In this document: positions 15,001-64,000 of the stretch, piece after piece
Layout of the letters: each line of letters begins with the position of its first letter
Numbering within the stretch: position 1 is the first letter of the stretch
Assembly: GCA_040954595.2 (NCBI GenBank)
Contig: CM082581.2
Location: forward strand, 5,944,699-6,008,698
Length of the DNA stretch: 64,000 nt
DNA from: Balanoglossus misakiensis
Taxonomy: Eukaryota; Animalia; Hemichordata
Direction: 5' to 3'
Translations under genes and position numbers: made by a program
Notes under the pieces: generated by a model
What the model saw: the letters and a program-made list of their open reading frames with translations, nothing else
What the model was told of the DNA's origin: nothing
The model's database searches: none

Positions 15001-15166
15001 TTTGCCGGAATGTTAAAAACAGTTCACTGCACACACAGGGACAAATTCCATGCTTTAATTTCCTTTCATTGACGCGCAGTTTTACAGCATATTTTAAGTG
15101 TTAATTATAATTGCGCTGATAATTATCGCAGGTGTAGCGAAGGACTTGATTCGTCGCAGCATTTTA

Positions 15167-15928
15167 ATGGAGTTGTCCGTTGTATTTCAGTTGCAGCAGC
15201 TGATCGTCAGCGGAGGGCTGTCATGCGCTTGGAAGGAGGGCGGGAGACCGGTTGGTCAGTGGTCGGACTGGGAGGGACAGTGGGGGAGCAACAGTTGTAA
15301 ATCGGACGAGGAGACGTACACCTATGAACGCGGCAGAGAGAAGAGAAAGATGATGATGGAAAGACGTCGTCGTCTGAGGCGCTCGCTGCCCTCGGATCTC
15401 GGATTAATCGACATCCAGTCCAGCGAACGCAGCGGGAAGGTCCCGGGAGGGGCGCGGGGAGACGGCGTACGCGAAGTCCACGAAATCGGCCCGGCCAGGT
15501 GCGCGTACCGGTACCGACGGAAGGGCCAGGCCGTTTGCAGCAGGTTCCCATGGCAATGCGACAACCAGGTGGACAGCGATGAGGACGAGCTGCTGTCGTA
15601 CAGCCGGCATCTTGGTTGGCCGGAAAGTAATCAAGGAAAAACGGGAAAGGTGTCATCCGTGGAAAGTGTCCATGGAAAGTGTTTCTCCGCAACGGTCGAC
15701 AAACTGCCAGACTACCTACCCAAAGGGTACATAGAACTAAAGAACATTGCCAAGCTGGTGAGAAGGCAGTACCACCAATACGGTCAGTTGTATGGCGTGG
15801 AGGCAGACCAAGTCAGTGCTGAGAGACGGGCCAGACAGTTGTACGTCCCCATGTGTATGGATTTACCAAGCCACAGCTGTAAGGTCTGCTACGTCAAAGA
15901 TCTCTACGGGACAGAGCTAGCCAAACTG
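15167..15928 (+). CDS. PLCE1: PLC-epsilon N-terminal coding exon (start uncertain)
   Basis: GC/CpG-rich 294-codon open frame ending at CTG|GTATGT (phase 0). It joins in frame to the acceptor at 20343 (TELAKL|[10 protein letters not shown]). ATG at 15167; alternative acceptors at 15132 and 15191 are possible if further exons lie upstream. Confidence 0.7.
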
Positions 15929-18900: not shown

Positions 18901-21900
18901 CGACACGTACCTGCGGCAATTTGCACTATTTTTGGCTGATTCGTATTTCTAATTAAACACACAAGGGTCACCGCATCCAATAATTGACTCTGAATTAAGC
19001 AGATGATGTGAAAAATGGCTGAGTCAGTACCGGTATTTCTTTGCCTGTAATTACCTGTGGTAGAAAATATTTCAGGTCACAATAAAGGAAAAACTGCTTT
19101 TTCTCAAATCCTTTCAATTCAAGTGAACATTTTGACCTGATAGCTAAGCTATTATCTCCCCATTGTCTCTGATCCAGTCTTGTAAAGTCATGTTTATGCC
19201 GTTGATGGCATTAAGTCTGATCAGACACATTAACCAGATTTATATGGTAATTAAACTTCCAATCTGCTCAGAAAAGATTTTGATGATTGCAGACCGAGAA
19301 GCAATCACTCACAAGGGAGCAGAAGATAGCCTCCATTATTGAGGAGTTCACTGAGCTGAGCAAGCAACCTGGGAGAGTATTTACCCCGTTTGAAATTATT
19401 TCTCGTTATTCTCCTTTGCCACTGGGAAATTGCTGAAATGTATCGATTTGATTGCCGCAAACTGTCTCCCGGTAGAGAGATGGTGAAAGTAATCACACAC
19501 TTTAATAGCCACCCACTTTGCCGAATTAACCCCCTACTGGACTTCTCAGTGAAACCACTGTTGACATTTCCATTTGTTGCAATGTTTCAAGGAGGAATTT
19601 TTCGCTCCCCGTGGAAAGCAAACCACAAACTGGCCTCTCTGCGGATCAAAACATGGCTGCATGTGGGAGGTAGGATTGCTATTTAGTAAAACCCACAGCT
19701 TGATTGGATCACAAACGGTGACAATGATATATGGCTAGTTATTTCTCAACATCTTGATACTCAATTGCAGTGCAAAATATTTTGAAGCTGTCCTGTTTCT
19801 TACATGTACTATTAAGGTCCACAGATTGCAACTAGCCACGAGTGTATTGAGTGGAAACTGGCATTCTTTGAATGGATGTCACTCTTCACTCAATGTCACA
19901 TAACTTTCACAATCAAGAGGCTTATTAAAATGAAAGTTTCTGGATTATGAGATGAGTTGCCCGTGGGCAAGGATACTGTTTGTCCTTCTTACTGGTCATG
20001 TGCATTCTGGAAAAAAATTGCCAAAATTTTTTACTCTCATATCATACAAGCAGTTGTGTGTGGTTGAACATTCATTCACTACATATACACATACAGATTA
20101 ACGTAAACAGTGTCTTGCATCAAACATTATTAATGGAAAAAGGGCAGCGATAGAGAGACTTTGTCCCTTCATTTGGTATCATAATTAATGTTATTAATAT
20201 ATGACTTTTGCAGAATAGAATGGATACACATTTTTTATTCCTTTCAATCATATGATATGATATGCAACTGCCAAATGGAGAAAAACTTTTTGTAAATCTT
20301 GTAATTTTGACTTACAGTATGTTTTCTTTGGTCTAAATCTAGGCAGAGATGTTGCCATATATCAACTCAGGAAACAAAGGCCTGTTGAGTAGCTCCAGCA
20401 AAACTCTGACAAGCTGCGTTTCTGGCAGCAAAATACAGGAATTACTCAGCAGGGACGGCCGATCAAGAGAAACGACAATTTTTGAATTTCGCACAAACCA
20501 GTGGGTGGTCCAGACGCCATTGGAGTCCTCTCTGAAAGCGATCTCCACGACTTTGCGGGACTCGATGAGAAATCCAGAACGGGGCAAAGGGAGGAACACA
20601 AAGGGAGATGATGCCAACAAAAGTTCAAGTGAGTTGTGAATGTATATCACCTCTCACAGCGGTGTTTTGGTTCAACCGTATTGTTTTGAGTGGCATGGGT
20701 CAAACCATTTACACAGGATTCAGGGTGACTAGCATTAATCAGGTCTACATTTTCAAAATAAAGTTATAATTTTTTGTGTGCAAATTGAATCTACTCTTAA
20801 AATTCATAGTAACATTATGACTGATATTAAAATTTGAATAGATACCAAACTCCTGTACATGTGTTAATTCTTGTGGAAGAATTGTTTTTTTTTGGAGAGT
20901 GTGCTTTTGTTTTTATGTTCCACTCATACTTTGAAAACAGTGGCAAGACTTTGTTAGGACTTGTGTTGTAACGACATCTGTGACTGCTGTAACAGTTACT
21001 GTTTTCTGGAAGTGTCAGTTATTTAAGCTTAAAGATATTTGTGAGACCCGCAGTGCCACAGAAGATGTTACTATTCTTTTGCTAAACAAGAACCAATCTT
21101 TCACTCTAGGTGACGACAAAGCAAAACATTCCAAGATGTACGCAGAAGACTTGCGACAGAGCGAGAACCTTCTGCATTTTCCAGAAGAAGTGGCGTATCT
21201 TCTCACGGACACAGAGTATGAAATATTTAACAGTATCCCAGCTGTGTGCTACATACGACACGTGACAAATGACATTACACAGAAAGGTCTGTTGCTCAGT
21301 GATGACTCGGGGCCAACTGTACAAACACTGGTAGATAGATTTAATGAGGTGAGTGTACTATTTTATGTGAAGTAAATTTATGAATAATAGCCATGTATTG
21401 ACCAGGCCTCTGTATTTGAGACACTGAGATGAATTTCTTTAAGAAGATGCCAGCTGGTAAAGTTATAACAATCTTTGCATACTTGAAAAAACAAAAGCCC
21501 CGTCATTCTTTGTCCATAGAGGGCGCAAATAAAAAAAAACGCCACACGTATACATGTAATAGTCAGATACATATGCGTCATTTCTGATTAAAAGTGGTAA
21601 TACAGTGCTGCATGCTGTTAGCAATCTGTTTGTATCATCTTCGTTAAATTGTTCTAGGTAAGCTCTTGGGTAACCAACACAGTTCTATGTGCCAAAAGCA
21701 ATGAGGATAAAAAGAATGTGATAGCCAAGTTAATACGGGTTGCCAGCGCATGCTGGAATATTGGCAACTTCAATGCTGTCATGGAAATCATATCAGGACT
21801 CAGGTGAGTACAGGCAATCATATTACATTTGGGGTTTTAAAGTGCCATTTTGTTGCTATTATGGAATTTATTTTTATTTTTTTGGTTATTTTTAGTTTAC

Positions 21901-24900
21901 CTAAATTATCGTGGTGTTAACGAAAATTACTGAAAGTGGTTTCAGCTCAAATCTTTGTTTATGTGTATGTGGCCATGGTGCTGGTATGGGAATATATGTA
22001 CTGGCATGATATAATTTCTGATATTGACAAAAACTGTTCATTATATTCTATTTAAAAAAATACGAGTTCAGCAACATTTCATAATGGCATACACACAGGT
22101 TGGACTGGTTGAAACCGCTGTGGCTACAGATGCCAGTCTCCGCCCAGGAATCAATGAACACCTTGAGGGAGATGATGAGAGCGGACGAACAGCTGTATCG
22201 AGACGCTGTGGAGAAAGCCCTCCAGACCACGGGGTGCAAAGTAGTGCCCTACTACGGATGGTTTGTGGATGAGCTGAACAAGATCTTCAATGATTCCATG
22301 ACAGTGCTTGCAGTGGATGTGTACAACCAACATCGAATTGTGGTGAGTTCAGAAGATTATCGTTTTTTTTTGCTCATTGTCTACAGACTGTGTTAAGGAT
22401 GAACATAAACTGGAAAACTGCACGTATTTGTCTTTTTCCATAGGATTACATTGAGAATAGCTAGAAAACTCACTTCTACTTTAGTCATTTTCATGAAATT
22501 TTACACATATGATAGCTCAGTCAAGTAAACATAAATTCATTGGTAAAAAAAATCGGAGTCACTTCGCTCTATTTTGAGATAAATTGTGTTACAATTTTTG
22601 CCCATAGACAAACCATTGGTGAAAAATGCTGATTCAGCAGTTTTCTTCTTTTATTGACTAAATTATATAATTTTTTTAAATTTCAGCTCATCTCAGAATT
22701 CCACGGAGAAGACCAGTTTTTGTCACGGATTGGAGCAGGAGGAATAAGTAACAAGGAAAAAGTGAAGAGGGCGCATTGGGTTTTGCATGATATACAACAA
22801 TGCCAAAAACAATGTGCAATGTCCACCAACACTGCCAGTGATGAAACACTCACTAATTCCAGGTATTTGATATTTGGTAGTTGTGTTCTTTTGAGGGAGT
22901 CTTCTGTTTGTTGTATCAAAATAATTTATAGGATTAATGGAAGTATCATTTGTATGAATTCACTGAAATCAGCACTCACTTTAACCCTTTCACCACCATG
23001 GTTTGGTCCAAATCCATTGTTTTCTATGGTGAAGTTGGATCTCTAAAGAGGGAACTGGGGGGTGAAAGGGTTAAAGTTGATGACAAGTTCTTTTTGTGCA
23101 GTTTTTGACTGGTGTTCTGGCACACTTTAAAATCTTTTTTTCTGTTTTCTTTTGGTTTGTAGAGAAAATTTGTTATTGTGCACAGGTGAGAATGACGGTT
23201 ACATGGAGACGTGGTATCCAGTACCGACACGGGAACCCCCCAAAGTGCAAGTGATTTGGGCCAAGCTCGCCCGACTGGACACTTTCAACATACAGAGCAT
23301 GCACAGGGGAACCCTGTGCGTTCACTGGACTCAAGACAACGAACGCTCGGCCGTGTGCCTCATCAAACTCAACCGGTGCAATTCCGTTCTGCAGTGGACA
23401 AAGTACGGCGATTACATCCGATCGGACTCGGACCCGTCGTTGCCGTCGCTAGCCAACCGGTACTACCAGAGATCGGGGTCGGCGATACAGGACGGGCTGG
23501 AGGAAGGATTCATCGATCTCACGTGTGCCAAGGACGTCTTTCTGGGGTGCAACGAGGTCGACCTGACGGCCGTGTCGCGCCGGCATTCTCTGCAGGACCT
23601 GTGTCACCAAGACCACTGCTTCTCCATCCTCTACGGGAGCAGCATCTCCGAAAACAAACTGGTTCACTTCGTGGCGCCCACCTGCACCGCCAGGCTGTGG
23701 TACCGCGGATTGAAGGGGCTCATCGAAGCCAGCAAAAGACAGCAGAGGTGTTATGCCGACCGGAGGATAGCATGGCTGCAGAGAGAATATTTGTCTCTCT
23801 ACAGTGATAACGATGTTGGTCCAAGTCCCACAGATGCAATAAAGGTAAGTTTGAACGACATGAATACATTTTATAGGGAATTAAACAAATTATAGAAAAT
23901 TGTAATATCTGAATTATTTGCTACCTGTCAAGGTCTTTGGGGGAAAGAACTGGTCCATGATGACTGGACCACCGAGTTACAGAGAAAAAACGAATGCAAC
24001 AGAAACAACCAACCTCAAGAGAAGTGGCACCATGACAGCAAAATTTAAGAAGAAAGGTATTTCGAAGGTGAGTTCACTATTCTTAACAGTGCATATAAGA
24101 ATCACAGTGATGCTTAGTTCCGTTCCCATAGCTTCTAGTGAATGATAGTTAGGAAGTATTGTTGATGTAATATGAGGTATGTAACCATATACCATTGATA
24201 CATAATAATTTATCGTTCTGTATGGGTAATAACTAATGCTCACAAATAGACTTCATGAATTTGCTAACTCACATCATGCTTTGGGTAAAGTTGGGGGCAA
24301 GACTGAGAGCTGGTGGTGTTAGTCAAGCATGTCATGTAGCTATTGCAAGCTGAAATCACCATATTCTGTACATCATATGCCCGTAACACCAGTGAGTATT
24401 TGCTTGTCCGTCATGTTCTTCACTGTAAAGCACATGGTCTTGAAATATGATCAGTGCTTTGAAAGAGTGTAAACTGTAAATGTTTTGTTATTGCAGGAAG
24501 ATAAATTACTCACAAGTAACTTCAAGAGAAGTGACAGTATGAGATCGATTAAAATGAAGACAAATCATCTGAAGTCACGGGAAGCTGCCAATATGCCAGG
24601 TAGGTCAAACTTGCAACATTTTTACAAATGTTTAGGATTGAAAACAGCAAATGCACACCTAGTCTCATATATATGACCATTTCAGACTTTTATAACGTTA
24701 ACTTGAGTACACATGTATAATGTAAATTTCCAGAACTTCTGTGTTGGCATGAGATCGCTGATGCTCTCATAGGTTTAGCCATTTTGTATTTAATATCAAC
24801 ATCTACTGAGAACCATCAGTCTACTAAATGAATGTATTGTTTTCTCTCATTAAATCTATATACATGTAGTTCACCCGTGGGCGTGACATGTAATTTTGTA

Positions 24901-27900
24901 GACTTTTCAGGCCTCCTTCTTTAGCTGTATTCATTGTGCCTGTACTGTGTAAAACACAAATTCGATTCAATTACATTTATTAAGACATCCATGCATGTGG
25001 TTTTGCAAATTTTCCTTCTATCCAGGGAGTGAAAAAGTGACCCAGAGATATTCTACTGCCAGCCTTGGGGGATATGATTCCAAGTACAGCGGTTCCGGGG
25101 GTTGTAGGAGACACAGCACTGCGTTCAGCTGGTACAGGAAGAAGAAAAGCAAAGAGGGAAAATCGAGGACCAACACGGAGAAAAAAGAAATGCTGGCATC
25201 ACCCATAACCATGATGTCTAATATGAATTTCAGTGGTAAGTATACAGTAATGTCTTTATGAATAGTACTGCTTGTTTGTACAGTCAAACCTGTGTTAGTG
25301 GAGACCTGTCTATAGTGGCCAATTTGTGACAGTCCTTGTGCAATTTACATGTACATCAATTGACCTGTTTATAAAGTCAACCTGTCTATAAAGGACAGTT
25401 TAGGAAAGTCCCTTGACTGGCCAGTATAGACAGGTTTGACTGTATGACTTAATGTATCACTTTTTTTGATTCCATGTGTTTTGTTCTTATCCATGCTTCT
25501 GCTTTTAATATGTCCCGAATGCTTTCAAGAATAATTAGTGTTGAACTTCAAATGAGATTTTAATTAACCTTTCCTCATTCTCTTTTTCCTTCTCGCAGAA
25601 TTTCTGGAATTATTCAAGTCTTTCAGTTTACGGTGTCGTAAAGATCTGAAAAACTTGTTTGAGAAATTTGCAGTCGCCAACAACAATGTGAAAGGCTCGT
25701 CCATGTCAAGTTCATTGTCAAATTTGGTGACGTCACCTCTGGAAGCTTCCACTGCAGCCACTGAAGGTAAGCTAACCAGAGGGGTCAGTCCAGTAATGTT
25801 ACCAATGTTGCATTACGTCACATTCACAGAATCACAGCATTTCATTGAAAATATAGAATGCCCAAACCAAGGTTTGAAGTGGAGATATTGGCGATTTTCA
25901 TTTAGTCTGATTATTGGAATCACAAATTTAGCACAGAATTACTATAATCAGACTTGACATTTGTTCATATTGCTGAATTGAAATTGAAATCTAGGATGTC
26001 CTGCTTTTGAAGGCATCATTCTGGATGTTAGTAATAGCAATTTTCAGATCAAAATCAGAATGAATTTAGTAAAGATTAAAAGGCACAAAGTGTCTCAATG
26101 TAATTTTTTACCCAATAAAGCAAATTCAAACATGGAACTCTTTTTTTTGATTTCCAGAAAGTCTGACAAGGAACACAGCTGAAGACATTTCCTATGAGAA
26201 TAACAGGAGAGTAACGGACGCCATCGCTGCGTCCAGTGTAGCTAACAACAGCACTGGAGTAGAAACCACGTCATCGACATCACAGGTCATCGGAGTCACG
26301 CAACTTCAGGATTTCCTCCGAAAAGAGCAAGGCCAACAGCTGAGTGAGGAGGATGTTACTACAATCATACTAGTGAGTATAGTAAAACCTGTCTAAACAT
26401 TGGTAGAGGACAACATAGCCTTCCTGTCGATGAAGTCCATAGCAGTTTTGTAGTTTTGACCACTTACTGTCATTACTGTGAAACTAATGTGCTCTGTGTT
26501 TTTTTAACTTAATTCCTGGTACAGAGGCATGAACCGAAAGCCAGTATGAGATCCAAGAACTGCTTCTCGTTTGAAGGCTTTGCCCGGTTTATGATGGACA
26601 AGGATAACTATGCCTTCCCTAATGAAGAAACGATAATCTGTCAACAGGTGTGTATTATTTGTCTTCTCAATCAACTCTTGCCAGTCTTAATGTCAAAATA
26701 TAATGATCCAGTCAATACCTGGGTATGATACCAATTAAGGAAATGACCAAAAACATAATTTATGCAATTTCAATTTTATACTGAAACATAAATTGTATTG
26801 ATTTCATTTTTGTGTAATGACAGGAACAGCACCATCCATTGTCTCACTACCTCATCGACTGCTCACACAACACTTATCTGACGGGTCATCAATTGAAAGG
26901 AGAGTCTTCAGTGGAAATCTACGCCCAGGTAATTAGCCATCATGAAAAATTGTGTTACTGATTAGAGATAATAGTCATCAGAATTCTTGTAATATTGTTG
27001 GTGTAACTAAATTAACAACTTGAACTGTTTAGATCTTACTGACTGGATGTCGATGTGTTGAGTTGGATTGTTGGGACGGTGATGACGGTTGGCCTATAAT
27101 CTATCATGGACACACACTGACAACGAAGATCAGTTTTAAGGTGAGTTTTTTGGAGAATTTATCAGAGTTTCCACTTACATAAGTGATTGCACTGTGGTAG
27201 AAAGCTTGTACGGGTAACATAGCAAATTTTGCTCAGCTTGAGCCAATGTTAAATGATGCAGTTATTCAAGACTTCTGTATGCCAGTACCACAACTACATT
27301 GTATCTGACATAAAGCAATACAGCAAGGTGCGCTGCTTCTGATATCAGCATTATTGATAATTGACATTTTTGTTATCGTTTTTTCTTCTTCCAGGAAGTA
27401 GTAGAGGCCATTGATCGAGCAGCATTTGTATCATCAGACTACCCTGTCATCTTGTCCATAGAAAATCACTGCTCAATATTACAGCAGAAACGAATGGCCC
27501 AGATATTTGTGGTAAGCCATTGCATACTCTCCTTTAAATTTCCACTATTAGCATGATTTGTACACTGTTTCAGACGGCATCATGTGGGAAAAAAATTCTT
27601 TGACATTTTGTTACATTTTTAATAGAAAACTCTCCCACAATAAACATGAAGATGGTTTGTTTCTCTGTGTATACACTTTATTCCCCTATCGGAGGACGAG
27701 CCAATAATATTATAATATAGTGTAGTCAAAATAAGTTTGCCCAGACGATCGAGGTACAGCAAGGGGGCCAGCCCTCTCCAGTGGTGAATATCAACAATAA
27801 AGTGTCTAACCTAGAAACTGCTGACTTCAGTAAAAAAAATCCTGTTTTTAATTCTTTTTTTTAAATATTTTTATTTATCCATAGCAAGTATTTGGAGACA

Positions 27901-30800
27901 AATTAGTCACTGATTTCCTGTTTGACTCCGACTTCAGTGATGACCCTCACCTGCCGTCGCCCGAGCAACTCAAACGCAAAATTCTCGTCAAGAACAAGAA
28001 ACTGAGGGCCTATCAAATGCCACTGAATATGCTAAAACAAAGGGTAAGTCAAGTTTAAATTTTGTCAGTTTGCAAAAATGTCTATAAGCTGTGTTGGTGC
28101 AGTGGAAACATACAACCTATGTTGCTAAGCTGAATAGAGGACATTTCATCATTGCCCTAGAGAGTCAACAACAAGAAGATGCTGTTGATTAGCAAAACTA
28201 AAATAATTCTGAAAAATTGGCCCAAAGTTACAGAAAATCAACCTTTAAAATCAGTTCATTGATGGAGGAAGATTTTGTATATGACTTATTATTATTACAC
28301 ATAATTAGTACTATTATATATTTTCCCTTAATTTTATAATACAGGTTATGAACATGATGAATCAACAGAAAGAGTTGACTTCGTCGCCTATCAGTACATC
28401 ACCCGTGGCCACGTCGCCTGCGACTGACCGTACATCCAGTTCTCTGCAAGAACAATCGGACGAAGAAGAGGACGAAGATGATGATGACGATGAAAATGAA
28501 ACCTTGGATGGTAAGGCAGGGTATAGAGATATATAGAAATGGCTCACTTAATTCACATATTAACTGATCAACGGAGATTGCAGGTATTTTTCATTGCATC
28601 GCAGGAGTGGATGCAGTCTTTCCTGCTGTGCTGTGATGACAGCGAACAGTGCCGACTGGTGTTGAATATTAGAAATATTTTTGTTTTTAATATTGACAGT
28701 TGTCATCGCCTTATCTTCAACTCTCTGTCATTTTCAGAACAGAAGATGATTTGATGTACAACATCAATTTTAAATCATGATATTGAGAATTTTTTTCTAC
28801 TGATATCTGATTTTGTTACTTTTTTTTAGACAATGTTCAAATGAAAACGGTTGAGGGCAATCTTGTGGAAGAGACAATGTCCAATGGCAACTCACCTCTG
28901 TTGAACGGTCGGCCTCCAAAACCCAGTGATGAAGATTTGTCGCCATCGTACAAATATGACACTATAAAACGGTCCAAGTCAGAAGAGAAGAATATCAAGT
29001 AGGTTTATTGTCATAGTCGTCCAACATGTGGTATTGTAGCTGTTCTGTTTGTCTGATCCAACACCAAGAGTCTTCAAAGTGATAAACTTGAACCTCACTC
29101 TTTCCTTCATTTGTGTTGTAGGAGAACTCAATCCATGTACGGCGAAGACACCTTTATTATGCCGCCGAAGAGCAATCGGAAAGAAACCAGTCACATTGCC
29201 AGAGAGCTGTCGGATTTGGTCATTTACTGCCAAGCTGTCAAATTTCCAGGTGAGGGTGAGAACCTGTTGGTTCCTACATAAATCTACTTCAAAAAATTGA
29301 AATTGTCATACAAGTTGCTCTTTGCTGGTTTCCCTATTATACATGTACTTACCTGAACAAATCCATAAGTTCTAAATGTGGTGTGTTTATTATGTGTAAA
29401 ATTCATATTGAACCAAACTAAATCATGTAGCAAAATAAAGCCTTAATTTTATGATAAACAATGCAGGATTTCCTGAGGAAGCAGCCATTTCCAACATGAA
29501 GCAGAAGATGCCAAGTAAAAAGAATTTACAGAAGACTTCATCGAGTAGTATTCAAATAGCAACCAGTCCCCAGTCTCCAGGATTACTTATAGGTAATTTT
29601 AGTATAAATGCAGATTTTTGAATTCTCCAATGAAATATAAGGATCACCGTGCTTGGTTGTAAAATTCAAGGTTGTGAATTTAGTTGATAATGGAAAAACT
29701 GCTGAGTCAGCATTTTTTTGCCAATGGGGTTTTTCTATGGGTGAATACATTCAACGAATTTTATCACAAAAATGAGCGCGGTGATCATACGATTTTATTC
29801 GACCGCTGAATTAAATTTCATTTGTCTGAGCTACGTGTAAATCTTCTTGAAAGTGACAATAGTGGAAGTGGGTTTTCTAGCAATTCTCAATGTAATCCTA
29901 TAGGAAGAGACAAATTCACGCGGTCATAGTGTACCTAAAACCTTAATGTTCACATTCTTGCAATGGTTGATTTCAGAGGGCGAGTCCAGCCCCAAAGTCG
30001 GCCGAGCAGATACCAGACAGGTCGGCAACGCAGACCCACTCTCAAAGTTCATGAAGACACCCAAGTGTTATCACATGTCGTCCGTCAATGAAACTGGTCT
30101 CAAGAAACTCTTCAGGAAGTTCGCTGCCAAGTTCATTGAATATCCTTTTGCAAAAAAAAAAAATGAAAATGTGAAAGTTGCGCACATATATGTACAGACT
30201 GAAGTGACAGGAATTTAATATACCTGCCAGAGTGCCGATCAATACTTCTTTTATGCAGGATATTAGACATGTAGAAGTATTTTGATTGATATTTGTGTGG
30301 CTGCCAAGCTATAGATTAGAGTGTTAGCAGCTAAGAGTGGCATGAACTATTTCAGCTAGGCATACTTTAGCCTTTTCGGAAATGATCATTTTCATCAAAA
30401 ATTTTACATTCTGATCCTTAACCATTTTTTGCTCACGCATACCGAAGATCAACTGATAAGGACCTATCCAGCTGGTATGAGAATTGATTCCTCCAATTAT
30501 AACCCAATTATTTATTGGGCATTCGGAATTCAATTGGTTGCTCTGAACTACCAAACAGAAGGTGAGAATTTTGCTTCGGATACAGAAGCGACAGAAGAAG
30601 GAAGATTAGAATGGATATTTTTTACTACATGTTGCACTTTCTTGACTTCTTAAAGAATGTTCAGATTAGGAAGCTTTTCTGTAATAAACAGTGACAGGCC
30701 TTTATAGGAAAGTTTTGTAGGCCACCCTTTCAACCTGAGTCGAAATTACTATTTGAAGTTGAAAGTAGCCTTGGATGTTGGTGATGATGACGACGACGAC

Positions 30801-30864
<64 letters not shown>

Positions 30865-33800
30865 GTGATGATGATACATACTGTATATCTGATTCATCAC
30901 TTATTCTGTCTTCATTTCACAGACCTCAACATGGCCCTGAATAGTGCCTTATTTGAACAGAATGGACGGTGTGGCTACGTTCTGAAACCGGAGTATCAAA
31001 TCAACAAATCACACCCACTATTCAGTAAATTCAACGGCTATGAGAAAGATATCGATGACATGGTTCCATGGTCTGTTGACATAACAGTAAGTAGAAAGAG
31101 TGAATCAATATTGTCCTGAAAATGTTAATTAGTTGACTTCATATCATTCAAACAAATAAAGTTGCTACCAAGTGCATTCTGTTGTACTGTTCTTATATTC
31201 GATTTGAATACTGATTGATGTTTCCCCGATGACACTCACAACAGGTGATTTCCGGCCAGTGGGTGTGTCCGAGCAATTTCACGGGCAGTCCTGCGGTCGA
31301 AGTGGAGATTCTGGGGATACCATCGGATTGTGCCAGGGGCAAGACCAAAGTTGTGTCCAGAAATGGTGTCAATCCAATATGGGGAGAGACTTTTACATTC
31401 CAGGTGAGAGTCTATTATCTTTGGTCAGTGTTTTGTTTAAATCTCAGACCCGTGTACTAGGAATAACCATATGCCTGGGCCAGGGAATAGAATAACGCAG
31501 GGTGTTGTGGGACAGTTTGCGTTCTGAGCGCGTGCATTAGCCATGTACTAGACGCTATGTTGAATGCAAATTATACCATCATGCATTGCACATACCCTAT
31601 CAGCGAAGTGGTCTATGGTGAGTTTGTGGTAATGAATGATTTTAGTTTGTTTTCTGTGCAGCAAGTACAATATAAAAATAATTATACATGTGAAGCTCTT
31701 AATAGCTAAAAAGACATAAATTTAGATAAACACACAAATTGTGAGTGTAAATTTAACCTTGCTGTTGTTGTTTGATCTTGTTTCACAGGTGGCATTACGA
31801 GATCTGGCCTTCATCAGATTCTCTGTGAATGATTCCAGTGGTTCTGGTTTGACTGCACATCGTGTCATACCCCTCAAGTGTCTTAAACCAGGTCAGTTTT
31901 GAATAACATGTCATATATTCAAATCTATTATTTTAAACATTTTTGACAGTTTGAATGTGCATGTTGTTGTCTTCTGTCAGACATTTTGTTGAGAAGTTCA
32001 TTATGATTATGATTCAGGTTTCTATTATCTATTATTTCTGATTATTAACCACATTTCCAACATCAATCCCCTCCTCGCACCCTCCCCCTATTTCCTACGT
32101 ATTCCCTCATTGCGTAAATCTCTCCACACCCTATCACACTCACTCATTACATACATTACCACATAACCAATCTACCCATCTACACTGACATCTTCCCACA
32201 CATCGACATGTGAGCACAGTGCCCTTGGCGCTATTTTTAGTAAACACTCTTGGAAAATGTATTATAAAATAATGAAATTTTATTTTGTCCATGTTTTCCT
32301 GCAGGCTACCGCCATGTGAGGTTACGAACTCCTCAAAACTATCCTCTTGAACTGGCAACACTCTTCATATGTACCAAGTTGAAGCAGGTTGAAAATGCAT
32401 TGCAGAGAAATGCCTTTGACGGCGAAAACCGAAAACAGTTCAAATCCAATCTTCTGTACTACAACATTGGTAAACTGGACACAGACAGCAAATCTGATTT
32501 CAGTGAGGTAAGAAACAGGGAGCCCTTCCACCCCCCAGTTTCCTCTATAGAGGTCCAACCTTACCATAGAAAACAATGGATTTGGACCGAACCATGGTGG
32601 TGAAAGGGTTAAAAATGTGTTATTAAAATTCTGTTCTGATTATCAAGGAATTAATTACCCAGATTTGACTGACAAAATGTCTGTGTTCAAAAACTGAATT
32701 TATTTGAACTCTTTTCACCCCAGTTGGGGTATCCTTCAGTGTGAGGTCATCCTCAGTAACAAAAACATGTTGTTTTGTTTGTTTTTAGATATTTGGTGAG
32801 GGTAAGAAGAGGCGAACATTTACTCTGGTAGTATTTGGATTGATTCCAACAGAACCATGTACAAGTCTTAAAGTGACACAAGAAACAATCACACAGGAGT
32901 TGATTGCACAGGTGAATGATTCTATAATCTCTGCATTTCTTTCAGTAATTAATCCATATCACAATAATGAACGTTATTTCTTTATTCTCTCTGAATGTTA
33001 TCCTTGCCTTGCTTTAAAAAAAACTTGCTTTATTCTGAAGAATGAATTTCTAAGAAAGATTTACGCATCAATAGCAGTGATTGCGATTTCCCAATTCGTG
33101 AATAAAACAGAATGGTTCCCTCACAATATCACATCCCATTTCACTCATACATCATTTCTTGATATCCCGTTAATGGATACACGGTTGACATCCGTTTAAT
33201 GGTTATTGCAATATATGTGCGTGTTGGCGCATGTTCTAATTTGATTTTGTTTCTCGGGCACCTTATTTATAAATCAGTCAACAAGATATACGCGTTTCAC
33301 TACTTCGTCAAATAGATTTACAGTTTTTGAGTTCGTGTGTCTGTTGACTTGTCCACTGAGCCAGCTAGAGCCCTTGTATTCACCATTGTTTGATGAATAC
33401 TTGATTAAAAATTATATATATTCTTGTTTTAACAGGCACTCGGAAAAGCGGGTAAATCACTCGATGAACTCGGTGATTTCACAGTGATGGAGGAAGTCCA
33501 GGATGGGTGGGGGGAGGAAAAGACTCCCGGGAAAACGTACAGAATCTTGGAAAAAGATGAAAAACTCCTGGAAGCCCAGGCCAAGTGGAAAGGAAGCGGT
33601 AGATTTATCTTCAAGCGGAAAGACGACGTGAGTATATCGGCTTTCTGTAAAACGCGATTGAGTGAGCCCAGACTGTCTACGATTTGCTCGTCCTCCAAAG
33701 CTTAAAGCTGACAGTCTGATCTCGCTTCTCGGATATTTATAGTAAGTGACATTTCGCGGAATTATACCGACGTGCTTTAGACAGTACAAGATTAATGAAA

Positions 33801-36094
33801 GCAGCTTAAAGTCAGACATGCTTGGATGACATAGAGATTTGTTATTTAAGACCACATGGTACCGGTGTGGACTGTTTCAGGGATTGATTTTGGATGTGCT
33901 AGAAAAGAGATTGTGTAAATGACGTATATTAAAAGGTGTTTTTACTGTGGGATCATTTCAGCTGCATAATACAGAGAGAAGGACACAGGTTTTTAGTTTG
34001 ACAGAAAAATACATGGTCAAGCTATTACTAATATCCAGTATATATTTAATCTGAATTTTTTTACATTGCCTTTGTCAAATTCCCATGTTTTGAATATAGT
34101 ATTAGTATGAATATGTATCCAAATATCAGTACTGCATGTGATAAGTGTTATTCCAAAAAAAATGTTTAAAGTGTATGAAATATATATAGTGCAATCTTTC
34201 TTCCTGCTGTGGTGGTCTGATAATTCGATGTGAAACCAACAATAATTTTCCATCATACAGAACACACTGTACACACGTGTTCAGGGTATAGTTTTTAGCA
34301 TTATTTTTTTTTGTCGTCTCCAAAGGTTTCAGAAGGTCACCCCAGTGATGTTGACAACGAGACGTTTCTGATGTGTGTGTACAACGTGTCCAAGGAACAG
34401 CCGTACACCATTTTCCGCTGCCCTGTTTCCAGCACTGCACAGGATGTCATCGCACAGGTAAAAAAACAGTGCTGGCATTGCACTCAGTAGCTGTTTCTAG
34501 AATTATTAGAGCAGCATATTGCTTGCAGATGAACACACTTGGTACCACACATGAAGCCCATTAAAGGTATACAGTCACCTCCAATTTAAATATGCCCACA
34601 TATGGCAGAAATGGCGTATTTGAGCGTTCTAAAGAACATATGGTGGCGCTCCTTTTTTTCGCGTGTGCCACCCCCTGAAAATCTGTGATTGGCTAGATCT
34701 CAATTTGCCATGGTAACTATAGCTAAATTTCCATAGGTGACCGTTAAAAATGCTTCTTCAGTTTGATATATGCATATTATTGTATTTACTGATCTACCAA
34801 GCTGTAATGTCAAAGAAAGCCATGATTAACTTTACCATTCCGTTGATGTGCTACACACATGCATGTACGTACTTTCTAATTTTTCATTTCACCACAGGCA
34901 ATGGCCAAAGCCAGACGACAAACAGGCGACGCAAAAGACTATGTCTTGGTGGAACATCTGAACAGTGAACTCACCGTGCACAGTGACTACACCAGCAAGA
35001 AAACAAACACTGCCAACAGCAAACCCAGACAGCGAGTCTTGGATGATTTTGAGAATGTCTGCCAGGCGCAAAGCCAGTGGAAGTCGACTGGGAAGTTCTA
35101 TCTCAGGGAAAGGGAACCGGTAGGACTCTTTATGACACCGGAATACTTGTTAAGGAAAAAAAAAACACTATTGAAGATTCATTCAAATTTAAATGCCATT
35201 ATTTTTGAAAATTATTTCATCTTATGATTTCAGGAGAAGCGAGGGGGCTCATTTTCACTGAAATGTCTGACGTCAGTGAGGAAGCTGTCTTTTGGCTCTG
35301 CTGTGCCATCAAGCAGTCTATCAACATCTATAGAAAACTCACAAGGTATGTTGAAAAAATGTTGCTATGTCTGTCACTTTGCTATATGTCTGTCTCTTAG
35401 TACATCCATCTATTCATCAATCCATTCAATCATCAATCCATTCAATCATTCATTCATTTGTTCATTCATTCGTTCGTTCATTCATTCATTCATCCATCCA
35501 TTCATTCATTCGTTCGTTCGTTCATTCATTCGTTCATTCATTCATTCATTCATTCATTCATTCATTCATTCATCCATCCATTCATTCATTCGTTCATTCA
35601 TTCATTAATTATTCCATTTATTCATTCATTCATTTTTTCATTCATTCATTCATACATTCATTCATTCATTCATTCATTCATTCATTCATTCATTCATTCA
35701 TTCATTCATTCATTCACTCATTCATTCATTCATTCATTCATTCATTCACTCATTCATTCATTCACACAATCATCTGTCAGTCCATCCATCTTATGGAAGT
35801 GTTGGTCAAACCGCCGTTGTTAATATCTGTTCAAATTTCACTCATTCCAAAACAGAGGACGACTTCCATGAACGTTCGAAGACGCTTCCTAGTAATTTCC
35901 GTGCAAGCAAGTCCCTGGACAATATATTAAAAGACAGAGGGAAGGATGCGGGCAGAATCGGCAGTCGAGATGATGACATACCACCCACCACTACCAGTAT
36001 CACAGTGTATAAAAAACACAGTCGACAGGCCGCCAAGCAACTCAAGAAACTCTCCTTCAGTAACTTCATGAAGACTTGGAAATCAACGAGCTAG
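15167..36094 (+). CDS. PLCE1: 1-phosphatidylinositol 4,5-bisphosphate phosphodiesterase epsilon (phospholipase C epsilon), 33 coding exons, ~2167 aa
   Basis: Phase-consistent exon chain read by eye: 15167-15928, 20343-20628, 21110-21348, 21658-21803, 22099-22342, 22687-22862, 23163-23844, 23933-24067, 24497-24599, 25026-25235, 25599-25766, 26158-26372, 26525-26647, 26824-26928, 27033-27140, 27395-27511, 27885-28043, 28345-28510, 28830-28998, 29122-29249, 29467-29592, 29977-30139, 30437-30561, 30923-31086, 31245-31403, 31789-31891, 32305-32507, 32789-32911, 33436-33627, 34326-34457, 34898-35119, 35234-35345, 35856-36094 (TAG). Total 6504 nt, divisible by 3. The combination of RasGEF, PI-PLC X/Y, C2 and two RA domains is diagnostic of the epsilon class. 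The start codon and first exon are the least certain part. Confidence 0.95.
20028..20176 (+). repeat. Dispersed repeat fragment, copy 2
   Basis: Direct-orientation match to 8910-9062. Confidence 0.8.
21110..22862 (+). CDS. PLCE1: PLC-epsilon CDC25/RasGEF domain exons (21110-21348, 21658-21803, 22099-22342, 22687-22862)
   Basis: Spliced peptide [12 protein letters not shown]...LVDRFNE|VSSWVT...[18 protein letters not shown]|...[11 protein letters not shown] matches the RasGEF motifs of PLC epsilon. Canonical GT-AG boundaries. Confidence 0.93.
22393..22652 (+). mobile_element. Dispersed repeat with TTAA-GG terminus (Kolobok-like non-autonomous fragment), copy 1
   Basis: Aligns by eye, in reverse orientation, with 29691-29946 (TAGGATTACATTGAGAAT..CTAGAAAAC..CACTTC; TGCTGAnTCAGCAGTTTT). 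The superfamily assignment is an inference. Confidence 0.7.
22981..23074 (+). mobile_element. piggyBac-like MITE (TTAA-CCCTTTCACC...GGTGAAAGGG-TTAA), copy 1
   Basis: TTAA target duplication with CCC...GGG ends; related copies at 32523 and 56482. Confidence 0.85.
23163..26647 (+). CDS. PLCE1: PLC-epsilon PH-like and EF-hand-like region exons
   Basis: Exon 23163-23844 (GLEEGFIDL...CFSILYG...LVHFVAP...LWYRGL) is PH-like. [18 protein letters not shown] and [14 protein letters not shown] are typical of the PLC epsilon EF-hand region. Confidence 0.9.
25279..25444. mobile_element. Tc1/mariner (pogo/Tigger-like) MITE in PLC intron
   Basis: TA|CAGTCAAACCTG ... CAGGTTTGACTG|TA, with internal repeated ACCTGTCTATA motifs. 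Confidence 0.85.
26824..28043 (+). CDS. PLCE1: PI-PLC catalytic X-box exons (26824-26928, 27033-27140, 27395-27511, 27885-28043)
   Basis: [81 protein letters not shown]. Both catalytic histidines are present. These short exons are missing from the ORF track. Confidence 0.97.
29122..31086 (+). CDS. PLCE1: PI-PLC catalytic Y-box exons, including the epsilon-type Y-box insert
   Basis: [19 protein letters not shown]...(insert)...CYHMSSVNE...[18 protein letters not shown]...[11 protein letters not shown]...[14 protein letters not shown]. Confidence 0.96.
29691..29946 (-). mobile_element. Dispersed repeat (Kolobok-like fragment), copy 2, inverted
   Basis: Reverse complement of 22393-22652; ends CC-TTAA. 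Confidence 0.7.
30140..30436 (+). other. U12-type (minor spliceosome) AT-AC intron in PLC epsilon
   Basis: 5' site ATATCCTTTT at 30140; branch point TCCTTAAC at 30415-30422; 3' end AC at 30435-30436. Removing it joins KFIE|[11 protein letters not shown] in frame (phase 2). Confidence 0.93.
30782..30876. repeat. (GAT)n microsatellite (intronic)
   Basis: GAT/GAC triplet run between PLC exons 30437-30561 and 30923-31086. Confidence 0.95.
31245..32507 (+). CDS. PLCE1: PLC C2 domain exons (31245-31403, 31789-31891, 32305-32507)
   Basis: VISGQWV...[13 protein letters not shown]...[14 protein letters not shown]|[15 protein letters not shown]...IPLKCLKPG|YRHVRLRT. Confidence 0.95.
32523..32612 (-). 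mobile_element. piggyBac-like MITE, copy 2 (inverted)
   Basis: Reverse complement of 22981-23074 (CCATAGAAAACAATGGATTTGGACC...CCATGGTGGTGAAAGGGTTAA). Confidence 0.8.
32789..35119 (+). CDS. PLCE1: Two Ras-association (RA1, RA2) domain exon pairs (32789-32911 + 33436-33627; 34326-34457 + 34898-35119)
   Basis: RA1: ...[28 protein letters not shown]2: [31 protein letters not shown]|AMAK...DYVLVE...[27 protein letters not shown]. Both RA domains have a phase-0 intron at the equivalent position. Confidence 0.92.
35410..35765. repeat. (TCAT)n / (TCGT)n degenerate microsatellite (intronic)
   Basis: Long tetranucleotide run in the last PLC intron. It explains the FIHS/SFIH ORFs in the track. Confidence 0.95.
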
Positions 36095-47900: not shown

Positions 47901-47945
47901 TGACAAAAATTATCGGTTATAGCTCATGAAAATCATCCAAAAATG
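38921..47945. repeat. Satellite array, 88-bp monomer (some 87 bp), ~102 copies
   Basis: Consensus AAAAATCATGGGTTATAGCTCATGAAAATCATCCAAAAATGACAATTTTTCGACTTTGCGAAAGTTCAAAATTTCTTCATTTTTTGAC. Period confirmed by CATGGGTTAT at 39041 and 39129. Head-to-tail, highly homogeneous, no unique spacers. Confidence 0.98.
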
Positions 47946-50750: not shown

Positions 50751-60309
<9,559 letters not shown>

Positions 60310-60982
60310 TCCAACAAATACATTTGTTGGTTGTTGCTATCTCCAACGACCAAAATCTGGCGGTCATTGGTCAATCTTTGCTGACGACAGTTAAAACCCC
60401 GACGCCTGTGCTGCGATTCTGGCTATGTAATATTGCATATTAGGGGGTTTAAATGAAACATGTAACAACAAAATATTGATTTGTTCCATAGACACCAATA
60501 TGCAATTTTTACAACATAGCGACGGGAATGATGACCTCCACTGTCAGTTCTTTTCACGTTATCATCACGTGATCATTGTAAAAGTGTTATGTTTTGTTTT
60601 GTTTTGTTTTTTTTGTTTTGTTTTCAAGTTGTTTTGTTTTGTTTGATTCGTGTGTTTTTTATATTTGTTATCGGTCTTCCGTAGCAATATCAATTATTAT
60701 CACATTCGTATCAGTCATTCTCAACACGTCAGTGGTTTGTTTAGATGCAAAGAGATAAGCACACGAAAGTTTCTTATTTAATGAAAATAAAAAAAAAAAA
60801 TTGGCTGTTTCTGGCAAAAATGTTCGTTGCGATTGATTTTTATAATCCAACCGAGGTTTTGGTGATGGCATTATAGATTAACATTTCTGCTTAAGAAATC
60901 AATCATTTTCCATCACTTTGGATTTTTCCTGTCTGACATAAAACCTTTATGTTGCAATCAATATGTTTAGATTTCTTTTTTG

Positions 60983-63900
60983 TTACTCTCCGTCAACATG
61001 GGGGATTGAAAGGAATTCGAACGTCGGTGTGCCATTCGGACCAATGTTTGGATCCCCATCTGGGTGGATTGGAGTCTTGACCAACTGGCGACCGAGCAGT
61101 TCGATTTTGGCCATCATCGACATGCACGTTTTCATCTCCCTGGGATTTTCGTTAAACGCCCGGTGAATGCAGCGCAGGAGATTGGAGTATTCGGTATTGA
61201 AACGGTAAGATAAAAGTCTCGCTTTCGACTCTTTGGGATAGCTGTGTCTCTGTGGGTCATCAATTATGGGCCATATCCCACCAACGTGAAATGGAATCTT
61301 CTCTCCAGTGAAATGATAAGGTACTTTGCACCTCTCGTGTACGTACATCTGGTTGCATGGTTCGTCATTAGTCCCGCAGGCCTTAATAGTATATCTATCA
61401 GCATAGTCAACAGCACAAGCGTCGATGGCGGTTCTTGCTTCGTACGCCTTCAGCGCCGAATACTTGTCTAGTACGAGTCTGTTGCCCATAACAACCTCAA
61501 GAAATTTGAAGTAGTGAGAGAGATTACCGTCAGAATCAAATGGCTGTGTCGGAGAACTTCCCTCTCCCTCCTCTGTTATTACTTGAATAGCCCTTCTTGC
61601 GTCTTCTATACTCTGAACGGGAAATGGTCTCTTCACTGTGTGGCTATACCAATCATCTTCAGTAATCTGCGTGCTTTTGCTTCCGCATCTGAACAGGTTT
61701 TTGTCTTTGTTTGCATGGAACCAGAGCGATTTCCATATTTTCTTATAGTAAAACTCCCCAATTGTGTTATAGTGATGCTTCAAGTGCGGTTCAGAACTCG
61801 ATTCGTGTTCTGTGCTGTAAAGAATACTCTGACGTAGCTGAATAGGAAGTGTGTCATCTGGTTCCTCTATTTTCATGAAGACATCCTCTATCAGACCTTT
61901 GCCGAGTCTTTGGAGTGACACAGTCAATCCTGGGTGAACTCCACCCGGTAATTTTGACGGATACTTAGGTACCACCCTTACATCGTCCAGTACTGGATGA
62001 CCACATATACTCCTCAGGATGTTCGCCACCAAGGTCATATGGAGCATTTCTTCCATCGCAATACTGCGTAAAATGTTCGAAATCTCTATATTGTGTCCCC
62101 TTTTGATTGAAAACCATGCAGTCAGATATGGAGGAATAGTAGCGAGCTCGATTTCCAGTGCTGTTTGTAGATGATCTTTAAGCTCCTGTAGACTTAATAT
62201 CGGGATATCACCGAGCTGTGGGTCATCAAGCCATCGCAGAATCGATTGTTGCTTTTGTTTGGACAGGTCTCTGGTAAAAGGCATAAATGCTGGATCCGTA
62301 TCCGGCAGGGACATTGTCAACTTCACCATTTCCTTCTTACGCAGAATATCTTCATAAGAAGCCATGTTGACGACTTTGTTCATACTAGGAAACATGTTTG
62401 CATACATTTTGAATATTGGATAAATGTCCTGATACCAAGTCGGTCCACCATCTGAAAGATGAAAGTCGTCGTACATGAGGATAGCTATTGGCTGGTTAGA
62501 AGTGAACGGTTCTTTCACATGGACTTGGATGTCAAAGAGATACAGCTGTCCATCAATTATTTTTCTTGGGTTTCCAGGGCTTTGTCCCGTGAAGTCTAAC
62601 CAGGTAACGCCATTATTATCCGTTATCTGATACTGGGAATGCTGGACAGCGCTTGTAGACTCTCCGGTTTTTTTTTCGACTGGTCTAGACATTTTCATTT
62701 CCAGTGAAACGTTGTGTAAAGGTCTTCCAAATGCGGTCAAGAATGTTTGCACTTGCCAGACATCTCCAGGATTTTGTCTGAATATTCTTTCGCCTAAAAC
62801 ACCAACTGCAACCCCGTCAACTCTCTCTGCAAGTACGACGCGCAAACAGGCCTGTGTGTTTCTATCCAACTGTCGGATCATCAATGGTCGATGACGGATA
62901 TCACTGAGCTGCTGTTGGGTGAGATCAGAATCTTCGGGAATGCTGATGACTCCTCCTGTGGTCTCATACCAGTTTGGACGTGTATAATTAATTTGATCTA
63001 GGACTTCGACATGTGTGTCACAACTTAAAGACTGGGTCGCCTGAGCAGAAGGAAATGCAACCTCCAAGATTTGATTGAGATGCAAATCTGGGGATCCTGA
63101 AAGGTTATGCATGAGGGTGTTTCCAAGGTCAATCAATATCTTACCACGGTCCGGAAAGACTCTAAAATTCGCCATTCCAAAGTCCTCGGTATCTAACTGC
63201 CCAAGCTGTCGATGGCGAAGTCCATGCAATGGCAGAGCAGAACCGGCAATACCTATGCTTCCAACAATTCTACCAGTGAGAAAATGTGTCGATGTAACAT
63301 CGGAATTATAAGAATCCAAGTTAAATTTTATGGACAGCACATTCTGATTGCCGCTGGCATAGCTGTGTTCCTTTAACTCTTCCAAAATGCGCGAATGCTC
63401 CAGTTTATTTTGCCAGTCCACGTCGACCAGCAAGGAAAAGAATTCGACGCCGAGGGCGCCATCACGTTCAGCATGAGGCATTTTATGAAATGCATTCTCC
63501 ATGGCTGTTTCAAGTAGATTGGCTGTGAACGCACCTGGTAAATGTAGAGTCATTCCAAAAATGGCTGAAACTTTCTTGTACTCGGGATCCAAGTCCGCCA
63601 TCTTTGCTTGAGAACGTTTAACATTACCTGAAGGAAGCAATATTAAAACATGTTATCTTCGACTCTGTTTGCTAAATGTATTTTACATGCCTGATCGTAA
63701 AATATCCATGTTGCGATTCACCTCCACGCTTTCTATTGTGATAGAACTTCTCCAGTTTAGTCAGGAACATTTGAAATGCAAATTTGTCGGAATGGTTACC
63801 ACACACTTACTCAAGATATGTGTTCCGATCAGGGAATCCTCGATCGAATGAGTGACGCATTCGCCTCGTCTGTAGCAGACGCTAGTCACTTTACACTTCA

Positions 63901-64000
63901 ACAGCTGGAAGGATCCCGAGCCGTCGGGGTTGTATCCTAAAATATCTGGTCTCTGCCGCAGCCGTTCATCGAAGGTCGTGATGTCGTAGTTCTCCACCTT
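60983..64000 (-). CDS. VioB/RebD/StaD-like (iminophenyl/indole-pyruvate dimer synthase-like) protein with C-terminal ferritin-like domain; 5' end outside window; exons >64000-63811 and 63627-60983
   Basis: The 885-codon ORF plus the upstream ORF 63761-63997 are joined by a 183-nt GT-AG intron (63810-63628, phase 1), giving ...GYNPDGSGSFQLLKCKVTSV...DSLIGTHILS|NVKRSQAKMADLDPEYKKVSAIFG... Motifs: PTWYQDIYPIFKMYANMFPSM...DPAFMPFTRDLS (cf. VioB YYMPSTRELS) and ferritin-like LQTALEIELATIPPYLTAWFSIK, IAMEEMLHMTLVANIL, TIGEFY, AIQVITEEGEG, SHYFKF. Family assignment is from recalled motifs, not a search. Confidence 0.85.
63628..63810 (-). other. Spliceosomal GT-AG intron in the VioB-like gene
   Basis: Minus strand: donor TTGA|GTAAGTGT and acceptor tgttttaatattgcttccttcag|GTAATG. 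Splicing restores a continuous frame across two segments that both resemble the bacterial N-terminus. Confidence 0.85.

Follow-up and report, generated by a model that had tools for sequence, protein, structure and literature searches.

VioB, StaD and RebD are the closest described relatives of the protein reported here. Two reports (PMC10847564, PMC3640393) class them as haem oxidases, and a profile search for a solved structure of any of the three returned none. The gene we analyse lies at one end of a 64,000-nucleotide stretch of the genome of the acorn worm Balanoglossus misakiensis (contig CM082581.2, positions 5,944,699 to 6,008,698; the window). Its product is similar in size to VioB, StaD and RebD, is colinear with them over the full length, and has the same two methionines, the same MPxxR motif and the same six candidate di-metal ligands. 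It differs in its low profile identity, in its placement in a separate clade, and in a score far under the VioB family cut-off. On the whole we favour reading it as an intron-bearing member of a family spread across animals, which probably came from bacteria in a single transfer predating the split of sponges from other animals. The gene would encode a secreted oxidase of the VioB/StaD superfamily with haem and di-iron sites.

Gene model and family membership

The gene is encoded on the minus strand, where a stop-to-stop frame at 63652-60983 comprises 889 amino acids. The splice signals GTAAGT (donor, 63810) and TTCAG (acceptor, 63628) bound one predicted intron, whose removal joins a 190-bp exon to a 2,645-bp exon and gives a product of 944 amino acids whose sole stop codon is the terminal one. 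This agrees with the preliminary description of the stretch, which had reported an intact frame of at least 944 residues with one 2.6-kb exon.

63811..64000, minus strand: coding exon, internal to the gene and running off the window end, with 63 codons plus one base; 74% identity (45/61) to residues 70-130 of Ptychodera protein P0001
63628..63810, minus strand: predicted phase-1 GT-AG intron of 183 bp, from splice signals and the frame restored by joining
60983..63627, minus strand: last coding exon including the stop codon, 2,645 bp, from the frame and the spliced translation

Because the upstream exon matches Ptychodera residues 70-130, about 67 N-terminal residues fall beyond the window, and the complete protein probably has about 1,010 amino acids. 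Bacterial contamination or misassembly would account for the one very long exon, and no listed contig piece joins the gene to the neighbouring phospholipase C epsilon gene (contigs of runs X1 and X2, from one sample that is possibly the source, cover the gene and its flank). However, the intron is spliceosomal, the exon has a GC content of 0.45 in a window of 0.38, the protein nests with ptychoderid sequences in every tree, and its nearest relatives, which are hemichordate proteins, are encoded on chromosome-scale sequences as long as 39 Mb. Contamination or misassembly is thus effectively refuted, with a probability close to nil. The gene has the marks expected of domestication, namely a spliceosomal intron, animal neighbours and orthologues in related animals, and is almost certainly a genuine animal gene.

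Contigs of run X1 are 90-95% identical to the gene region (window 60983-64000) and have loose ends at 60992 and 63804. Their summed depth is 32-96 over the gene compared to 20-48 over most of the flank, although depth is not equal to copy number. Contig identity, loose ends and depth together hint at close paralogues in this genome.

The eight best of 125 homologues are all from hemichordates, with 46-60% identity (three from Ptychodera, one from Glandiceps, four from Saccoglossus). The next matches are bacterial proteins of about 900 residues from Chitinophaga, Undibacterium, Chromobacterium, Streptomyces and other genera. Annotated as 'ferritin-like', they align over 96-99% of the query with 30-33% identity and agree with it in architecture and in the conserved residues. 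A Pfam search, one of the checks proposed at the outset, identifies the C-terminal part as a PF12902 Ferritin-like domain (E 1.1e-55, 189.3 bits against a threshold of 22.3 bits) and gives a weak match to Mn_catalase (E 0.23). In contrast, the VioB model TIGR04492 scores 9.5 bits (E 0.18) against an equivalog cut-off of 1250, and membership of VioB itself was rejected; true VioB loci score 1779-1857 and one StaD-like protein 830. Class-level searches yielded VioB in 0/401 and 1/401 genomes; the reference loci came from genus-level searches that yielded VioB in 4/36 and StaD-like genes in 18/401.

Against VioB/StaD, BLAST gives weak local matches (E 1.5e-8 to 6.8e-4, 23-27% identity over 144-395 residues), yet alignment of the family profile with a VioB/StaD profile by hhalign is strong and spans the full length (probability 100, E 1.8e-56, 847 columns, 15% identity). 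Judged by sequence, the protein is therefore a member of the VioB/StaD superfamily but of a separate family. VioB/StaD proteins form a clade apart from this family in the trees, and an approximately unbiased (AU) test, carried out on a reduced set of 32 rows without a mixture model, rejects the grouping of hemichordates with VioB/StaD (p=0.003). The initial label of a VioB/RebD/StaD-like enzyme accordingly stands at the level of the superfamily and falls for VioB, RebD and StaD proper; the fallback offered with it, an uncharacterised ferritin-like family of broader scope, suits the protein better. Some members carry the automatic UniRef label 'Iminophenyl-pyruvate dimer synthase domain-containing protein'. 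PF12902 is also cited in a Schistosoma vesicle proteome, where it probably concerns ordinary ferritins. An Atlas search returned PF12902 clusters and one unnamed cluster only.

Candidate cofactor sites and predicted chemistry

The fold model (mean predicted local distance difference test, pLDDT, 88.3; predicted template modelling score, pTM, 0.80) divides the protein into two beta-rich regions, a small helical domain and the ferritin-like domain. Matches are given with their Z scores and root-mean-square deviations (rmsd).

62819..63627, minus strand: N-terminal beta-rich region, continuing into the upstream exon, with conserved D75/D77, R203 and E331; from model secondary structure and conservation
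62468..62818, minus strand: Ig-like beta-sandwich domain, model residues 271-387; matches VIA (InvE 5n40) with Z 10.0, rmsd 2.6, 104 aligned
62225..62437, minus strand: small helical domain, model residues 398-468, predicted to be cytochrome-c-like, without CxxCH; candidate haem site
62381..62383, minus strand: invariant Met479, first candidate axial ligand of the haem
62282..62284, minus strand: invariant Met512 in the MPxTRDLS motif, second candidate axial ligand of the haem
61016..62209, minus strand: ferritin-like PF12902 domain, model residues 474-871

In the model, the ferritin-like domain has the four-helix fold of its class and closely resembles the Caulobacter protein CC_0557 (PDB 3HL1; Z 27.0, rmsd 2.2, 254 residues aligned). 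The latter is a stand-alone domain; the acorn worm protein has about 540 further residues on the N-terminal side, plus a cysteine-rich insert of low pLDDT (model residues 732-766). A Foldseek search with the whole model returned 3HL1 and Ig-like matches only. In the bacterial family the protein is often split into an N-terminal gene of about 600-700 residues and a separate ferritin-like gene (44 of the bacterial domain matches are fused, 30 short and three open). Since many bacteria encode the N-terminal and ferritin-like modules as adjacent genes, the two modules are functional units.

Six residues of the ferritin-like domain, E557, E590, H593, E651, E752 and H768, are candidate di-metal ligands, their roles being assigned from sequence. 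Their conservation is 96-97% over 116 rows of the family and complete in the VioB/StaD rows (9/9), in line with the earlier suggestion of a C-terminal ferritin-like module with candidate metal ligands. All motifs quoted in the preliminary description occur in the protein. Its metal-ligand motifs are present too, but the conserved acids are E557, the second glutamate of LEIEL, and E752, the second-to-last residue of EEGEG, and not the first glutamates. The two histidines of the ferritin-like domain are the sole conserved histidines in the family. Outside the di-metal site, M479, M512, P513 and R516 are invariant (125/125 rows; 76/76 domain rows), while D75, R203, E331, R418 and R516 are common to all nine VioB/StaD rows as well. 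Protein P0165 of the jellyfish Sanderia has lost several candidate di-metal ligands and kept both methionines; it is possibly a pseudo-enzyme.

When the helical domain was folded alone, its best structural match was Geobacter PccH (4RLR), which has a class I cytochrome c fold (Z 5.9, rmsd 3.0, 78 residues). Cytochromes of the c type make up seven of the top nine rows, FoxE counted among them, and 11/50 overall. A Met-Pro motif precedes the last helix, as it does at the distal ligand of these proteins. Unlike c-type cytochromes, which have CxxCH, none of the 144 family proteins checked carries this motif for covalent haem attachment, and an invariant methionine appears to occupy the place of the expected haem-binding histidine. 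Because VioB, StaD and RebD are haem oxidases and have no spare conserved histidine, we moderately favour a model in which a haem is held by two methionines in the helical domain. Several results speak against this assignment. The match to PccH is weak, its Z score lying below the tool's caution line of 8; Foldseek with the helical domain gave nothing significant, and a second look at its 69 chains found no cytochrome; nor did the sequence of this domain bring one up when searched against Pfam and PDB. That the protein is an oxidase with haem and a di-metal site is a somewhat stronger prediction, which we consider quite probable.

In the proposed mechanism, the ferritin-like domain would bind two irons through the six ligands named above and reduce O2 or H2O2. 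The adjacent cytochrome-c-like domain would relay single electrons through a non-covalent haem between Met479 and Met512. The beta domains would take up the substrate, an electron-rich aromatic or enamine, and this would be oxidized to a radical and then coupled. In animals, the reaction would take place outside the cell, in mucus or matrix, most plausibly as part of defence or of pigment chemistry. The indole-3-pyruvate imine used by VioB is probably not the substrate.

Gene context in bacteria offers some guidance on the substrate. Thirteen of 80 bacterial loci, from two phyla and with both fused and split forms, have an ebo cluster that holds or adjoins the family gene (L004-L007, L044, L031, L032, L034, L040, L059, L069, L073 and L075). 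The hosts are Undibacterium (five, including one unnamed relative), Streptomyces/Kitasatospora (four), Methylobacter, Nitrospirillum, Photobacterium and Aliidongia. According to PMC6282210, the ebo cluster of Nostoc exports an indole-derived scytonemin precursor. The ebo context thus gives a hint of small-molecule metabolism but points to no particular substrate. Beyond ebo genes and a few cytochromes P450, a Pfam scan of 41 cluster representatives and 94/124 selected neighbouring open reading frames found no recurring partner. Cytochrome P450 genes recur near the family gene in the actinomycete loci L038, L043, L045, L048, L029 and L066, which suggests a biosynthetic cluster in actinomycetes.

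Compounds of the bis-indole or diaryl-pyrrole type abound in sponges, ascidians and acorn worms, and the animal enzymes could couple two indole-3-pyruvate or other aryl-pyruvate imines just as VioB and StaD do. They would then serve a bis-indole or diaryl-pyrrole route of the animals' own, with a secreted L-amino-acid oxidase supplying the imine. The full-length homology to VioB/StaD, the candidate cofactor ligands and the five polar residues common to all nine VioB/StaD rows, and the ebo linkage are consistent with such a reaction, as is the position of PF12902 genes next to fungal lodA-type amino-acid oxidases (PMC4417212). It is at odds with the 15% profile identity, the TIGR04492 score and the result of the AU test. 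Moreover, queries with VioA, StaO and VioC found no match in the 80 loci of the bacterial family (1.24 Mb) or in the 64-kb window, whereas 9/9 control loci were recovered; the tryptophan oxidase of VioA/RebO type, a search for which had been proposed earlier, was thus not found beside the animal gene. Pathway genes are, however, rarely clustered in animals. Taking these points together, we regard imine coupling of the VioB type as unlikely.

A second alternative dispenses with a biosynthetic substrate: the protein could be an extracellular peroxide-handling enzyme, a catalase, peroxidase or ferroxidase, that guards filter-feeding surfaces. RebD and StaD have a catalase side activity, the ferritin-like fold also matches Dps, bacterioferritin and Mn-catalase (Z 9-11), the Mn_catalase profile matches weakly, and most bacterial loci have no consistent biosynthetic neighbour. 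On the other hand, the beta domains span about 400 residues and contain invariant polar positions, which points to a substrate site, and repeated paralogue expansion among the animal members suits diversifying substrates better than a single housekeeping task. We consider peroxide handling slightly less probable than imine coupling, and retain the substrate-coupling oxidase as our working model.

Range and origin of the animal family

The preliminary description had envisaged a capture particular to this animal. The family instead runs from sponges to tunicates, and is older and wider than was assumed there. Members are found in homoscleromorph sponges (Oscarella, Corticium), cnidarians (Dendronephthya, Sanderia, Montipora), amphioxus (Branchiostoma, 28/59 rows of one search) and tunicates (Ciona, Styela, Clavelina), and in several animals they exist as annotated gene models. 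No echinoderm, protostome or vertebrate name occurs among the matches listed (150 of 2,710 representatives, with 30 nameless ones looked up). A large nameless clade from ENA/Logan assemblies is probably of sponge origin, because its median sequon density is animal-like (8.9 per 1,000 residues; 3.1 in bacteria) and it groups with sponges in a tree of the N-terminal module (72 rows, support 95).

Animal members very probably are secreted. A hydropathy rule finds a hydrophobic N-terminal stretch in 36 of 45 named animal proteins, as opposed to 0/99 bacterial ones. Hemichordate members have conserved cysteines, among them C48, C266/C324, C605/C711 and C883/C898, that none of 45 bacterial rows contains. 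With animal-only cysteine pairs of this kind, the animal members would, unlike VioB, StaD and RebD, be rich in disulfides. Some members from coral, amphioxus and tunicates have additional EGF, LDLa (PF00057) and TSP1-like modules, the last identified by eye. For the protein in our window, we infer secretion from its orthologues.

The animal copies have a well-supported single origin. In the N-terminal tree, which includes 17 split bacterial forms absent from the full-length tree, the 27 rows of animal or animal-like type all fall into a single clade (Shimodaira-Hasegawa-like approximate likelihood ratio test, SH-aLRT, 99), placed inside bacteria with a support of 97. An ingroup tree of 28 rows without outgroups separates animal from microbial sequences with 98/97. 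In a full-length tree of 55 rows, calculated with posterior mean site frequency (PMSF) profiles, hemichordates, amphioxus, tunicates and two unnamed rows group together (96), as do the microbial fused forms (96). The expectation that animals would nest inside bacteria is borne out by the 72-row tree and not by the 32-row tree, whose root falls between the two groups, and the exact nesting is less well supported than the single origin. As all known outgroups, including those used in our trees, are bacterial, the simplest reading is that a bacterial gene was transferred into the animal stem and later lost in many lineages; the bacterial origin proposed earlier is kept on the same ground. The pattern fits one ancient transfer followed by secretion, expansion and many losses, and a single early origin of the animal family appears reasonably probable.

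Some observations sit less easily with this history. The animals form an unresolved base in the full-length tree, the 32-row tree roots between animals and the bacterial family with supports of only 24 and 59, and in the reduced trees the order in which animal phyla branch has low support. A single early origin demands many losses, the range described here is that of the matches listed and looked up, and the signal peptide region of our own protein falls beyond the window. Independent transfers into sponges, cnidarians and deuterostomes would account for the patchy range and for the unresolved base of the full-length trees, in which the homoscleromorph sponges are placed on their own. That the family can move repeatedly is also suggested by an unnamed clade of 11 sequences, separate from the animal one and deep inside bacteria. 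Such repeated capture is nevertheless countered by the one animal clade of the 72-row and 28-row trees, by the grouping of hemichordates, amphioxus and tunicates, and by secretory features in common. We therefore think it rather unlikely, and prefer the single early transfer.

The deep clade consists of 11 unnamed proteins with N-terminal extensions (P0061, P0063, P0066, P0068, P0072, P0074, P0147, P0149, P0157, P0160 and P0177) and may stem from a further transfer, this time to a microbial eukaryote. Lycogalic (chromopyrrolic) acid is produced by slime moulds, which is a lead only. One Acidobacteriota locus (L049:8001-15721) has two N-terminal-module genes together with ferritin-like genes, and the second of the former (13877-15721) branches between the family described here and VioB/StaD.

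Microbe-derived deuterostome genes reported by Simakov et al. in 2015 (PMC4729200) are, like ours, intron-bearing animal genes whose closest outside relatives are microbial. Our family differs in that it is also present in sponges and cnidarians, outside that study's deuterostome-only definition. It is unnamed in the main text and two supplements of that paper, whose curated transfer list lies outside this scope and may mention it. The literature searched, with most subscription papers outside its scope, contains no description of the animal family or of its haem site.

Surroundings of the gene and significance

The neighbours of the gene in the window are animal in character, as had been noted before. 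Among 11 frames scanned, matches to RasGEF (E 0.0035), PI-PLC-Y (4.3e-7) and RA (9.2e-6) bear out the phospholipase C epsilon gene nearby, and the orphan transmembrane gene corresponds to a hydrophobic exon close to the 3' end of our gene.

20935..36094 (extent approximate), plus strand: phospholipase C epsilon-like exons, host context, with RasGEF, PI-PLC-Y and RA matches
59870..59980, plus strand: hydrophobic transmembrane-like exon of a convergent unannotated gene, from its translation

This exon is one of several small plus-strand exons at 59540-60330 that belong to an unannotated gene for a single-pass membrane protein, whose end converges on that of our gene. Just downstream of the phospholipase C epsilon exons, an AT-rich satellite occupies 9 kb (38929-47945), with about 103 copies of an 88-bp unit at 97% match; microsatellites also occur in the window. 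A GC-rich frame of 294 amino acids at 15098-15982, without a Pfam hit, is possibly an upstream phospholipase C epsilon exon.

Sessile and filter-feeding animals are known for unusual alkaloids. An uncharacterised, secreted and repeatedly expanded enzyme family in such animals provides concrete host genes, and adds a candidate transfer from bacteria to stem animals. The two methionines and six metal ligands offer a cofactor model for VioB, StaD and RebD themselves. A more far-reaching and doubtful possibility is that a bacterial coupling enzyme with haem and di-iron was taken up by the last common animal ancestor and became secreted there. Its expanded descendants in sponges, corals, sea squirts, amphioxus and acorn worms would then be host-encoded enzymes that join pairs of indole, pyrrole or aryl-pyruvate units, and so make marine alkaloids for which symbionts usually get the credit. 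The haem site of VioB, StaD and RebD, so far unlocated, would lie in this same bis-Met cytochrome-c-like domain.

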